A stretch of 64,000 nt of DNA from Thermoproteota archaeon (GTDB lineage: Archaea > Asgardarchaeota > Jordiarchaeia > Jordiarchaeales > Freyrarchaeaceae), in assembly GCA_029258835.1 (NCBI GenBank), contig JAPDJY010000039.1:99615-163614 (forward strand), given 5' to 3'. The notes under the pieces are model-generated. The model saw only the letters and a list, made by a program, of their open reading frames with translations. It was not told where the DNA came from and searched no databases. Of this stretch, positions 51,478-54,771 are shown piece after piece. The number at the start of each line of letters is the position of its first letter. Position 1 is the first letter of the stretch. Position numbers and translations under genes: made by a program.

Positions 51478-52446
51478 TTACGATAGGAGGAGCCTTATTA
51501 GCAGGCGGGGGATTTCTGAAAACTTTTTCACAACCACAAAGCGTCCTTTCCCAGCTTTTGCAATCTTCTTACATGCTTCTAATCCATACTTGGCAATTTT
51601 TCCCTTACTTGGAGTTGCTATCACATGTAAGAGGGGGAACTTGGCAGCTACCAGTGTTGGGTCGCCTCCCACGTTCCACTCCCCGTCGGTTATTAGAATG
51701 CCCCACCGTTTCCCGCTGCGCTTCACCTTAGAAAGCTCCTTTAACCCCTTAGATAATCCATCGCTCATATTCGAGTAACCAAGAGCTTTTATGTCTAAGA
51801 TCTCCTCCACCACTCTCCCAATATCCTTTCGTTCATTCATGGCTTTAAGTATGAATGCCCTCGTACTAAAACCTATCACAGCGTAATTTTCGCTTCGCAT
51901 GTGGTAGGCCAGAACAGCCGTTGAAAGTGCAGCGTTAAATAGCTTCTCCTCGGTCATGCTCCCACTAGAGTCGAAAATAAGCACTCCAGATTTCGCCTGC
52001 GAACGCCTTTCCAATCCTACAATGTCTTCATAGGAAACATACCCTTTCTCCAAAAGAAAGTCTATTGTTGCTTCCTCATCAAACTCCATTAAGCCAGGGT
52101 AGTAAGGCACTTTTTTACGGAGAGGCCCCTTAAGGCCACGGCCACTAATCCTTAGGGAGGATTTAAGAATAGCCATTTTCGCAAGCCTTTTAAAAATGCG
52201 TTTATATTTTGGATTAAGGTTTCCCCGTAATAGCAAGTATATTTCAACTGGACTCTGCACTTCACCGTAGGAGATGCGTCTAGCAACGAGGAGTGCGGCA
52301 TCGGGGCTAGAGAGAGCATCGGCCACGGCAACTTTGTTAACCCTTGACAGGCCCTTTATCGCAGTGAGGTTGCTGCATTTCAAAGCCAGCTCCGCAGCGT
52401 TTTTTATGGAAACGTAATCCATGTTCCTTGCTAAGTCAGTATACAC
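51478..52446 (-). CDS. vWA domain protein (frame open upstream to 52563; possibly expressed as a -1 frameshift fusion with the MoxR ATPase)
   Basis: MIDAS motif DSSGSM, GYSN, LITDG. Confidence 0.88.
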   Translation of the reverse strand: MYTDLARNMDYVSIKNAAELALKCSNLTAIKGLSRVNKVAVADALSSPDAALLVARRISYGEVQSPVEIYLLLRGNLNPKYKRIFKRLAKMAILKSSLRISGRGLKGPLRKKVPYYPGLMEFDEEATIDFLLEKGYVSYEDIVGLERRSQAKSGVLIFDSSGSMTEEKLFNAALSTAVLAYHMRSENYAVIGFSTRAFILKAMNERKDIGRVVEEILDIKALGYSNMSDGLSKGLKELSKVKRSGKRWGILITDGEWNVGGDPTLVAAKFPLLHVIATPSKGKIAKYGLEACKKIAKAGKGRFVVVKKFSEIPRLLIRLLLS

Positions 52447-52516
52447 GTAAAGGGGGGCTTCACCTAAGGAAATTTCTTCTAGGAGGAGGTCTAGACGTGA
52501 AGGAAGCGTTGCACGC

Positions 52517-52563
52517 GGAAGTTCATCGGAGGCGGCAGCCGCCCCCTCCCTTACATAAAACCC
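52517..52563 (-). promoter_or_regulatory. Candidate -1 programmed ribosomal frameshift signal
   Basis: G GGT TTT heptamer (52563-52557) in the MoxR frame, 6-nt spacer, then GC stem-loop GGGA-GGGGGCGG-CTG-CCGCCTCC-GATGAAC-TTCC; the -1 frame is the vWA frame. Confidence 0.7.
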
Positions 52564-53414
52564 TCAAAACATTCATCAACTATTTCCTTTATGACTTCCT
52601 CAACTGTTTTGTCAACTCCGTCCTCTAGCTCAACACGTGTTCCAAGGGACATTATGGCGACTTGAGTCCAGAGTTCACGTATGTTAGTCTTAGACCCATC
52701 ATAATGAGATATGAGACGCACCATGTCAATTGCTCCTCTAACCGATGCCCCCCTACGTAGGTCCTCGTGAATGCGCGTAGCCCTAACTATTTTCACAGCT
52801 AAGCTAATCTTCTCTGGATCAGAACATCCTGACTTAAGGGCTACGATCTTTCTCTCTTCCTCCTCGCTTTGATAATCGAGGCGTATCCAGCAAAACCTGT
52901 CTCTCAAAGCTTCTCCTAGAGCCGTTACTCCTACATGTTCAAGAGGATTTTGCGTGGCAATGATGAAGAAGCCGGGCTTAGCTACGATCTCGCCTATTTT
53001 AGGAATCCCCAGTCTACCTTCGTCCATAACCGGTAAAAGCACATTCTGAGTTGATTCGCTTAATCTATTTATCTCGTTTATGAATAAAATTCCCCCTTCA
53101 AGCATTGCAAGTGTGAGAGGGCCCGGAACAAAAGCATCCTTCGTATAGCCGTACTTTAGAACGGCAGGAGGATCAAACCACCCAGTTAGTTTTGCCTCTG
53201 TGTAGCGTTCGTCACCATCTACGCGGAAAATCGGCTGGTTAAAGTATTTTGCAATGGCATCCGCTAGGGTGGTCTTACCGACACCAACCTCCCCCTCTAT
53301 TAGCAGGTGGCGCTCCGCTAACTTCGCAGCTAAAGCTTTCTTTAACTCCTCTAACCTGCCGACGATGTTGAAACGAGACTGTATCTCGCGAGCCATTTCA
53401 TCTATGGACTTCAT
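52551..53414 (-). CDS. MoxR family AAA+ ATPase
   Basis: LLIEGEVGVGKT, FVPGPL, NEINR, ATQNP, EALRDRF, GASVRGAID. Confidence 0.92.
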   Translation of the reverse strand: MKSIDEMAREIQSRFNIVGRLEELKKALAAKLAERHLLIEGEVGVGKTTLADAIAKYFNQPIFRVDGDERYTEAKLTGWFDPPAVLKYGYTKDAFVPGPLTLAMLEGGILFINEINRLSESTQNVLLPVMDEGRLGIPKIGEIVAKPGFFIIATQNPLEHVGVTALGEALRDRFCWIRLDYQSEEEERKIVALKSGCSDPEKISLAVKIVRATRIHEDLRRGASVRGAIDMVRLISHYDGSKTNIRELWTQVAIMSLGTRVELEDGVDKTVEEVIKEIVDECFEGFM

Positions 53415-53482: not shown

Positions 53483-54457
53483 TTATGCTAAGTCGGCTAT
53501 ATCAACGCCGCACTCGCTTATCCTATCCAACATATCAACTACAGTACTCACTGGAAGCGAAATCTTTACAGGTTGCCCCACGAGGGTCTTATAGGCTTCT
53601 TCAACAGCCTGATCTCTCTTAGGCTTCATATTAATAGTCTTCGCAGCGAGCACGCTATCCTTTCTGACAAGTGCCTCGATAGCATTAGAGTGCATTTCAT
53701 GTGCTATACGATTTATACGGGTGATGCTATCTAAAACGCTTTCAGGTATGTCAACATCTAAAAGCAGTCTGGTTTGCTCTGCTATTTTAACGGCGTAATC
53801 AGCCATAGTCTCTATGCTCTTGACAGCAACCCGGTAGTCTAAGCATTCTATAGGGGTAACACCAATCTTCTCGGCTAAACGAGGATCCACTATTGCAGAA
53901 CGAAGCTGGCGTACAATTAAGAAGTATAACCTGTCAACGTCTTCATCCCGAACCACCACATTTTCAGCAAGGCTAAGATCCTTATCTTTGACCGCTGCCA
54001 CAGCGTCATCCTGCATCTTCGCCGCTATAAGATACGTCCGTTTTATTGTACGTCTCAGCGGAACAGCAGACGGTGAAAGAAGACATTGCAAGGTGATCTC
54101 TTTAGCGCTTTCCTCAACTATTTCAACACCTACAAGCTGCTGCAAGGACCGCTTAATAGCGTCCCTTTGATCGGGAGTAATACCCGTTTTCGACCTGATC
54201 CTTATTATATCATATCCGTAAAGGAAGTTGGCTGTTATTTCCCTCGTGAAGTTTTCACCTACATCTATGATAGCCGTTTTAAGCTCTTCCTTCTCAGAAT
54301 AGCGAGGGTCCACTATAAGAGAGCCGTCACCACGCTCTATAATGGCTACAAGGTCGCCCTGCTTCAAACCCAAACGCTTAATCCAGTTCTTAGGAAGACT
54401 AAGCAAGTACGTACTACCACCTGTTTTTTGAAGTTTTCGAATTTCTATTTTCGACAT
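53483..54457 (-). CDS. phoU: Archaeal phosphate uptake regulator (AbrB + PhoU domains)
   Basis: RKLQKTGGSTYLLSLPKNW, DEDVDRLYFLIVRQ. Confidence 0.9.
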   Translation of the reverse strand: MSKIEIRKLQKTGGSTYLLSLPKNWIKRLGLKQGDLVAIIERGDGSLIVDPRYSEKEELKTAIIDVGENFTREITANFLYGYDIIRIRSKTGITPDQRDAIKRSLQQLVGVEIVEESAKEITLQCLLSPSAVPLRRTIKRTYLIAAKMQDDAVAAVKDKDLSLAENVVVRDEDVDRLYFLIVRQLRSAIVDPRLAEKIGVTPIECLDYRVAVKSIETMADYAVKIAEQTRLLLDVDIPESVLDSITRINRIAHEMHSNAIEALVRKDSVLAAKTINMKPKRDQAVEEAYKTLVGQPVKISLPVSTVVDMLDRISECGVDIADLA

Positions 54458-54771
54458 AAAATAACCTCCTTTTTTTAGGATCATGAAAGCAACCTAAATA
54501 TCAGAAGGATAATGATTATAGACAATATATATTTTTTATGTATGACAAAAAACACGGTGTTTTCTCGGAACATATTGAAAAAAGAAAATTATTAAGAAGA
54601 AAACACCTAATTTCTTAACCTTTACTTGGAAATCGCCAAATCAATAAATTAGTAGGAAGTAAAAAGTAGCCAAGAGATACTTGTCAGTGAACTAGTTACG
54701 AAGAAGGAAATGCCTCTATAACACGTAAAAACTTAAAGATGAGGAAGAGTATAGGAACTTGAGGCGGGAAC

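Follow-up and report, generated by a model that had tools for sequence, protein, structure and literature searches.

A probable −1 ribosomal frameshift joining AAA+ ATPase and vWA reading frames in Asgard archaea

Two open reading frames (ORFs) on the minus strand of a 64,000-nucleotide stretch of DNA from an Asgard archaeon of the Jordarchaeia (hereafter the window), one for an AAA+ ATPase and the next for a protein with a vWA domain, very probably form a single gene that is recoded, in the window and in 76 relatives, by a −1 ribosomal frameshift. Most ribosomes would stay in the AAA+ frame and terminate at its TAA codon, releasing an AAA_5/MoxR-type ATPase of 287 amino acids (aa), and a fraction would slip one base back on the heptamer G GGU UUU and then read the −1 frame. 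At the slip, the P site would hold tRNA-Gly (tRNA-Asp or tRNA-Asn in most relatives) and the A site tRNA-Phe, and the event would be promoted by an RNA hairpin about 7 nucleotides (nt) downstream together with the adjacent zero-frame stop. The slipped product, of about 645 aa, would consist of the AAA+ module, a linker of about 20 residues, a helical domain and a vWA/MIDAS domain. Because one vWA domain docks on the AAA+ ring in NorQ6-NorD and in midasin (PMC13036017), both products may by analogy enter one ring in which a minority of subunits bear vWA, so that frameshift efficiency would set the ratio of ATPase to adaptor.

The arrangement at the window locus (Table 1) had first been described in a sequence-only reading of this DNA, which proposed a programmed −1 frameshift yielding both an AAA+ protein and an AAA+-vWA fusion. 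On the minus strand, the AAA+ ORF does end, as that reading had it, in ...TGT TTT GAG GGT TTT ATG TAA, with the heptamer in phase, and in the −1 frame a TGA immediately precedes GGG TTT TAT, the frame being open from 52563. The stretch of 39 open codons ahead of the GTG at 52446 is likewise present, and the predicted fusion, put earlier at about 645 aa, is 645 aa long. The alternative then entertained, an independent start at this GTG with a distant AGGTGA upstream, has both of its elements in place, 13 nt apart.

The comparative evidence derives from two samples, a first one in which 61 related genomes were searched, yielding 28 loci with both AAA and vWA genes, and a second one in which one genome per species was scanned, yielding 58 further split loci with organism names; removal of duplicates left 77 non-redundant split loci. 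Relative to the AAA frame, the vWA frame lies at −1 in 28/28 loci of the first sample, in 58/58 of the second, and in all 77 of the non-redundant set, at vWA identities of 35-77%. The lineages of the second sample include Jordarchaeum, Promethearchaeota/Lokiarchaeia, Hod-, Hermod-, Odin-, Heimdall-, Sif- and Borrarchaeota, Asgardarchaeum and Harpocratesius, and the split loci cover all major Asgard groups, with the genus Promethearchaeum and Ca. Harpocratesius represented by the metagenome-assembled genomes L079 and L090; beyond Asgard there are three loci in Hadarchaeota, which belong to another kingdom (L095, L097, L101), and one in Thermoproteota (L098). The sequence-only reading had singled out the loss of slippery site and phase among orthologues as part of the outcome that would speak against it, and not one of the 77 loci lacks either the U UUY site beside the stop or the −1 phase.

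Start codons are conspicuously scarce in the vWA frame. The first ATG, GTG or TTG lies at least 30 codons past the slip site in 44 of the 77 loci, and at one of them (L008) it comes at codon 204, beyond the MIDAS motif. Gene calls of the vWA part in public records are inconsistent even among close relatives, ranging from 301 to 363 aa, a typical symptom of a frame that is start-less. Conservation of the −1-frame protein in the alignment of relatives begins at the slip site and continues from there, with I30 invariant and E29 nearly so, and an AlphaFold2 model of this product has a mean predicted local distance difference test score (pLDDT) of 86.7, with low confidence for residues 1-16 and a first helix at residues 22-32 (pLDDT about 94). 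E29, I30 and this helix all lie upstream of the window GTG, which is residue 39. Judged from these sequences, independent initiation is not tenable as a general mechanism, and the GTG proposed earlier as the alternative start fares poorly, for it would remove E29, I30 and the first confident helix, and many orthologues have no start there.

An in-frame NNU UUY site stands 0-2 codons before the zero-frame stop at every one of the 77 loci, the stop following directly in 19, after one codon in 56 and after two in 2. Its commonest form is G GAU UUY (46 loci), followed by A AAU UUY (14), A GAU UUU (8) and G GGU UUU (2, including the window), with 7 others; 16 heptamers are thus perfect (A AAU UUY or G GGU UUU) and 46, the G GAU UUY ones, near-perfect. 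The P-site codon ends in U without exception, the corresponding figure for GAU and AAU among Asp and Asn codons elsewhere in the genes being 72-75%. The base 5' of the P codon, a synonymous position, is G in 46 of 57 GAU loci, against 15% G at third positions in these genes, and A in 14 of 15 AAU loci, a bias that is as predicted by re-pairing of the P-site tRNA.

The strong GC stem-loop noted earlier after the heptamer proved real, with a minimum free energy (MFE) of −17.5 kcal/mol, although its stem begins 7 nt past the heptamer rather than the 6 then given. It stands at z = −2.7 relative to dinucleotide shuffles, one in 200 of which is as stable, and places among the top 0.4% when the 34-nt windows of both genes are ranked. 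Across relatives, RNAalifold applied to a MAFFT alignment of all junctions returned no structure, hairpins of unequal length having been misaligned, and this approach was replaced by two gap-free length classes together with per-locus folding. The conservation of the hairpin that the sequence-only reading would lead one to expect is borne out: a downstream hairpin is kept at all 77 loci, in 21 of 29 loci the junction hairpin belongs to the top 10% of windows for stability, and pairing with covariation is seen in both length classes. In the window-type class (15 loci), 82.2% of cells pair, compared with 39-60% for slid partners, both sides have changed in four of the pairs, and none of 500 shuffles reaches the covariation score; in the Lokiarchaeial-type class (37 loci), the figures are 81.9% against 32-56%, with 1 of 500 shuffles reaching the score. 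Unrelated stem sequences keep pairing at the same place (GGAGG/CCUCC, GGGAAUUCG/CGAAUUCCC, AGGGAGCUG/CAGCUCUCU and GAGGACAUUU/AGAUGUCCUU), and by the evidence of these alignments the hairpin is maintained through compensatory changes. A search of Rfam gave no match at the junction.

Two further observations concern the hairpin region. The motif GAUGA, directly after the hairpin (window 52527-52523, minus strand), is invariant in the length class of the window; it resembles the core of a box C motif and holds an ATG in the AAA+ zero frame, which in the window opens an ORF of a mere 11 codons. The Hadarchaeota copies carry a GC-rich version of the hairpin, of −13 to −13.7 kcal/mol.

Both halves of the predicted fusion are recognisable proteins. 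The AAA+ ORF, which matches PF07728 (AAA_5, 4e-25) and PF07726 (AAA_3, 4.5e-17), has the features of the MoxR class, namely an AAA_5/AAA_3 module with Walker A (GEVGVGKT), sensor 1 (ATQNP), an arginine finger (the arginine of RDRF) and sensor 2, along with a variant Walker B (LFINE). This Walker B, LFINEINR at AAA+ residues 110-117 (window 53066-53089, minus strand), exemplifies an hhhNE motif, with Asn for the Asp of canonical hhhDE, that occurs in nearly all members of the frameshift clade, some in-frame fusions having EE. In the −1-frame product, about 140 residues of helical domain precede the vWA domain, whose best fold match is the NorD VWA domain in NorQD complexes (E 1e-7) and whose fifth-ranked match is the Rea1 MIDAS domain.

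Natural in-frame fusions, the existence of which had been suggested as a check, do occur and align straight over the junction. A word-indexed search for longer proteins gave no match, and the fusions came instead from an exhaustive profile search, which recovered many proteins of 585-711 aa with AAA_5 followed by vWA. Across the junction, these (P0010, P0034, P0038, P0061, P0073 and others) stay collinear with the products hypothesised for the frameshift, and they retain (D/N)(F/Y) exactly at the slip position. In the three fusions whose DNA was examined, GAT TTT is kept and the hairpin is absent (−0.5, −3.4 and −2.0 kcal/mol), from which it follows that the D-F codons pre-date the frameshift and that the hairpin belongs to the split form alone. 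In a FastTree phylogeny, rooted at the midpoint only, all 77 frameshift loci form one clade with support 99, and the in-frame fusions lie outside it save for one nested in-frame gene, a topology that fits a single origin from an in-frame ancestor followed by long retention. The branching of the three Hadarchaeota copies within the Asgard sequences points to the recoded gene having been transferred horizontally as a whole.

The nested in-frame gene (P0034, L042:1501-3636) encodes 711 aa, and its surroundings are those of an Asgard genome, the ESCRT-II gene EAP30 being close by. It reads GAT TTT TTT where its neighbour L088 reads GAT TTT TTA TAA, and the one additional T in its run marks either a reversion or a mistake of assembly in the homopolymer. 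Fusion of the two modules extends beyond archaea, for a metagenome-assembled genome of Bacillota (L103) also has AAA_5 and vWA in one open frame, of about 630 codons; this bacterial in-frame fusion clusters with in-frame fusions from metagenomes, apart from the frameshift clade.

Three other explanations were weighed against recoding by the ribosome. Gene callers treat the locus as two ordinary neighbouring genes, in which case the vWA protein would start at the GTG or at some other codon, internal or non-canonical, perhaps by translational coupling to the AAA+ gene, and the −1 phase would be a by-product of overlap. The annotated products in public records, the GGTGA situated 13 nt before the GTG and the few relatives in which the AAA stop coincides with, or lies close to, a TTG or ATG all accord with this; but invariant residues and the first modelled helix would be sacrificed by the GTG start, most loci have no usable codon in the first 30 (and L008 none for 204), called starts shift between close relatives, and protein conservation sets in exactly at the slip site, all of which renders two separate genes improbable. 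Programmed transcriptional slippage, whereby RNA polymerase would add one U in the U-run and a subset of mRNAs would encode the fusion, draws on the fact that the site is a T-run, of 6-8 T in some loci, and on the precedent of poly-A chlD sites (7-11 A), which mix both mechanisms (PMC3711429). The T-run is nonetheless of 3-5 nt in 70 of the 77 loci: a mere 4 nt in 46, including the window, 5 nt in 19 and 3 nt in 5. Runs that support efficient transcriptional slippage are longer than 3-4 nt, and slippage by the polymerase would leave unexplained the hairpin at fixed distance, the nearby zero-frame stop and the biased base before the P codon, so that we hold it to be very improbable. That an in-frame AAA-vWA fusion was simply hit by a one-base indel, and is now non-functional or a homopolymer artefact of assembly, would agree with in-frame fusions being the outgroup state and with the longer T-run that distinguishes the nested P0034; against this, 77 independent assemblies, produced in many studies and drawn from many lineages, show the same phase, and both frames are intact and conserved at the protein level despite vWA identities as low as 35% (77% at the highest), which reduces a broken gene or sequencing error to a negligible prospect.

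Several points nevertheless weigh against a −1 ribosomal frameshift. Conservation of D-F and the AT-richness of the genomes lead the codons GAU UUU to occur in the in-frame fusions as well, so that the heptamer taken alone is weak evidence. A perfect X XXY is lacking at many P sites, with A, U or C ahead of GAU in 11 loci, and in the Lokiarchaeial class the main stem begins 15 nt past the heptamer unless either a 4-bp (base pair) mini-helix or a kink-turn outer stem is counted. A TTG or ATG is present at or near the junction in L011, L013, L017, L025, L028 and L095, and at these six loci, as far as the sequences tell, independent initiation may operate. Finally, the 77 loci are related by descent, and counts made over them overstate independence.

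Table 1. Features of the recoded locus in the window, in window coordinates
Feature	Position	Strand	Remarks
AAA+ ATPase ORF, zero frame	53414..52551	minus	287 aa; AAA_5/MoxR class
Slippery heptamer G GGU UUU	52563..52557	minus	in phase X XXY YYZ in the zero frame
Zero-frame stop TAA	52553..52551	minus	one codon past the Phe codon
−1-frame ORF	52563 to stop at 51478	minus	361 codons plus stop
Start of predicted fusion reading in −1 frame	52557	minus	TAT
Junction peptide expected for the window fusion			...ECFEGF-YVREGAAAASDELPR
GTG, first ATG/GTG/TTG of the −1 frame	52446..52444	minus	39 codons in; start chosen by gene callers
Downstream hairpin, putative stimulator	52553..52524	minus	
Stem of the MFE register	52549-52545 with 52532-52528		plus inner 3 bp; −17.5 kcal/mol
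Stem of the alternative register	52546-52539 with 52535-52528		8 bp; −15.3 kcal/mol, 2.2 kcal/mol above the MFE register
Dinucleotides flanking the 8-bp stem	GA 52548-52547; GA 52527-52526		3-nt bulge, 2-bp outer stem
Linker	52560..52498	minus	FYVREGAAAASDELPRATLPS; low model confidence
Alpha-helical domain	52497..52144	minus	model residues 22-139; pLDDT mostly >90; begins 5' of GTG 52446
vWA domain	52020..51526	minus	VWA Pfam matches
MIDAS motif DSSGS of vWA domain	51972..51958	minus	

Among systems already described, the chlD genes come closest in design: they yield ChlI-like and ChlD-like subunits by −1 frameshifting, in Methanocaldococcus among others (PMC3711429, PMC9227772). In frameshifted chlD, as proposed here, one locus gives an AAA+-only product in the zero frame and an AAA+-linker-vWA product by a −1 shift late in the AAA+ module, fusions in a single frame occur naturally, and the two parts are annotated as two genes. 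The differences are that the AAA+ module of the window is AAA_5/NorQ-like and not Mg_chelatase with AAA_lid_2, that chlD slips on poly-A sites of 7-11 A (PMC3711429) whereas the window family has N NNU UUY and a hairpin, that no chelatase large subunit adjoins the window locus, and that the family is distributed Asgard-wide. The chlD parallel drawn in the sequence-only reading accordingly stands as a mechanistic analogy and fails as to AAA+ family and signals. The locus was also considered as a chlD gene itself and rejected as such, its match to AAA_5 (4e-25) far surpassing that to Mg_chelatase (9e-5) and its TIGR02442 score of 40 bits lying far below the cut-off, 779. Elsewhere, this genome has a chlD-like gene of its own, in-frame and 642 aa long, with Mg_chelatase, AAA_lid_2 and VWA_2 domains (L033:148-2076, contig C52) and a CobN of 1227 aa (L031:1024-4707, contig C37), unlinked to the window locus, and a PF01078 search of the genome found no obvious separate ChlI.

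On the protein side, a search of the PDB gave NorQ (60 bits) and CbbQ as the nearest solved relatives of the AAA+ module when scored per domain. Midasin, the top PDB match, was rejected as a specific relative, its low E-value being a sum over six modules of about 29 bits or less each; NorQ and CbbQ come directly after this summed match. In the NorQ/NorD and CbbQ/CbbO pairs (PMC13036017, PMC9976466), the partner protein likewise runs from an N-terminal domain through a linker to a C-terminal vWA domain, but the two are separately initiated genes, with neither a frameshift nor a covalent link to the ATPase reported; identity to the NorD VWA domain is about 17%, and no nor or cbb genes lie near the locus. 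Like the predicted fusion, midasin/Rea1 combines AAA_5-type modules with an acidic linker and a MIDAS/vWA domain at the C-terminus of a single polypeptide, and it docks this domain on its own ring (PMC13036017), yet it has six fused AAA modules in some 4700-4900 residues and shows no specific orthology to the window protein.

As to the recoding signals, the fucA1 gene of Saccharolobus solfataricus provides a cellular archaeal example of a −1 shift, likewise with a heptamer and a putative stem-loop (PMC8211752); there the gene is interrupted in two strains of one species, the site is A AAA AAU and the shift restores one enzyme, whereas the arrangement of the window family is conserved over a superphylum and would give two distinct products. 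The 2021 review of archaeal recoding that treats fucA1 as a strain-level case lists, besides it, some viral cases and a suggested chlD case alone (PMC8211752). A literature search combining frameshifting with Asgard, MoxR, VWA or Lokiarchaeota turned up no locus of this kind. The RNA-1 of Red clover necrotic mosaic virus reportedly uses the −1 site GGAUUUU, followed by UAG and a stem-loop. It resembles the commonest variant of the family (46 of 77 loci) in its non-canonical G GAU UUU and adjacent zero-frame stop, but this is a plant virus read by eukaryotic ribosomes, and the resemblance serves as a lead only.

Gene neighbourhoods are poorly conserved, with no neighbour common to more than 18 of the 87 loci surveyed. 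The commonest, a Ras-family small GTPase (PF00071, 1e-34; L051:2781-3443), lies downstream on the same strand in these 18, an adjacency that could be due to chance given the many such GTPases in Asgard genomes. Directly upstream of the window locus is a gene for a PhoU-domain protein with an AbrB/MazE-type N-terminus (window 53483-54484, minus strand); the four relatives from the Jordarchaeia all share this PhoU/AbrB arrangement, as do three loci (L025, L028, L030) that belong to another family.

A more specific role may be envisaged for the hairpin. A descriptor of our own for kink-turns (outer stem of at least 2 bp, 3-nt bulge, GA, helix, GA) is matched in 55 of the 77 loci at a fixed 8 or 11 nt past the heptamer, the expectation from the rest of the same genes being 0.036 per locus. 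The window fits it as UA / agg / GA / 8-bp stem / GA / UG, in a register that is not the MFE one; the outer stem is short (2 bp in the window), and each GA also opens a codon for a conserved E or D. In the linker, it is the conserved E and S-D-D/E residues that fall on GA...GA; the in-frame fusions do not conserve them, which argues that the RNA rather than the peptide is under constraint. The genome encodes two L7Ae-family proteins, and a literature search found no paper tying kink-turns or L7Ae to frameshifting. We offer only tentatively, and as less likely to be right than wrong, the idea that the stimulator is a kink-turn dependent for its action, wholly or in large part, on being bound by L7Ae, a ribosomal protein of archaea, in which case the ratio of short product to fusion would report the pool of free L7Ae. 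If true, this would be a protein-dependent cellular −1 frameshift conserved in the archaea closest to eukaryotes. Much more speculative is the notion of the AAA_5-linker-MIDAS protein as a prokaryotic counterpart of midasin.

Conserved cellular −1 frameshifting is almost undocumented in Archaea (PMC8211752), and the present locus would add an old recoding event to that record. For the family, it would mean that its vWA genes are mis-annotated across public Asgard genomes as truncated ORFs with variable starts, and for the study of recoding the locus would be a natural test bed for the mechanics of frameshifting on archaeal ribosomes and for a stimulator possibly controlled by L7Ae and a kink-turn. 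It would also have a clear logic at the protein level, in that two subunits of one AAA+ machine would be made from one mRNA. The solution known from chlD would then have arisen a second time, in another AAA+/vWA family, which suggests that co-translational assembly at a fixed ratio is a recurrent design for AAA+/vWA machines.

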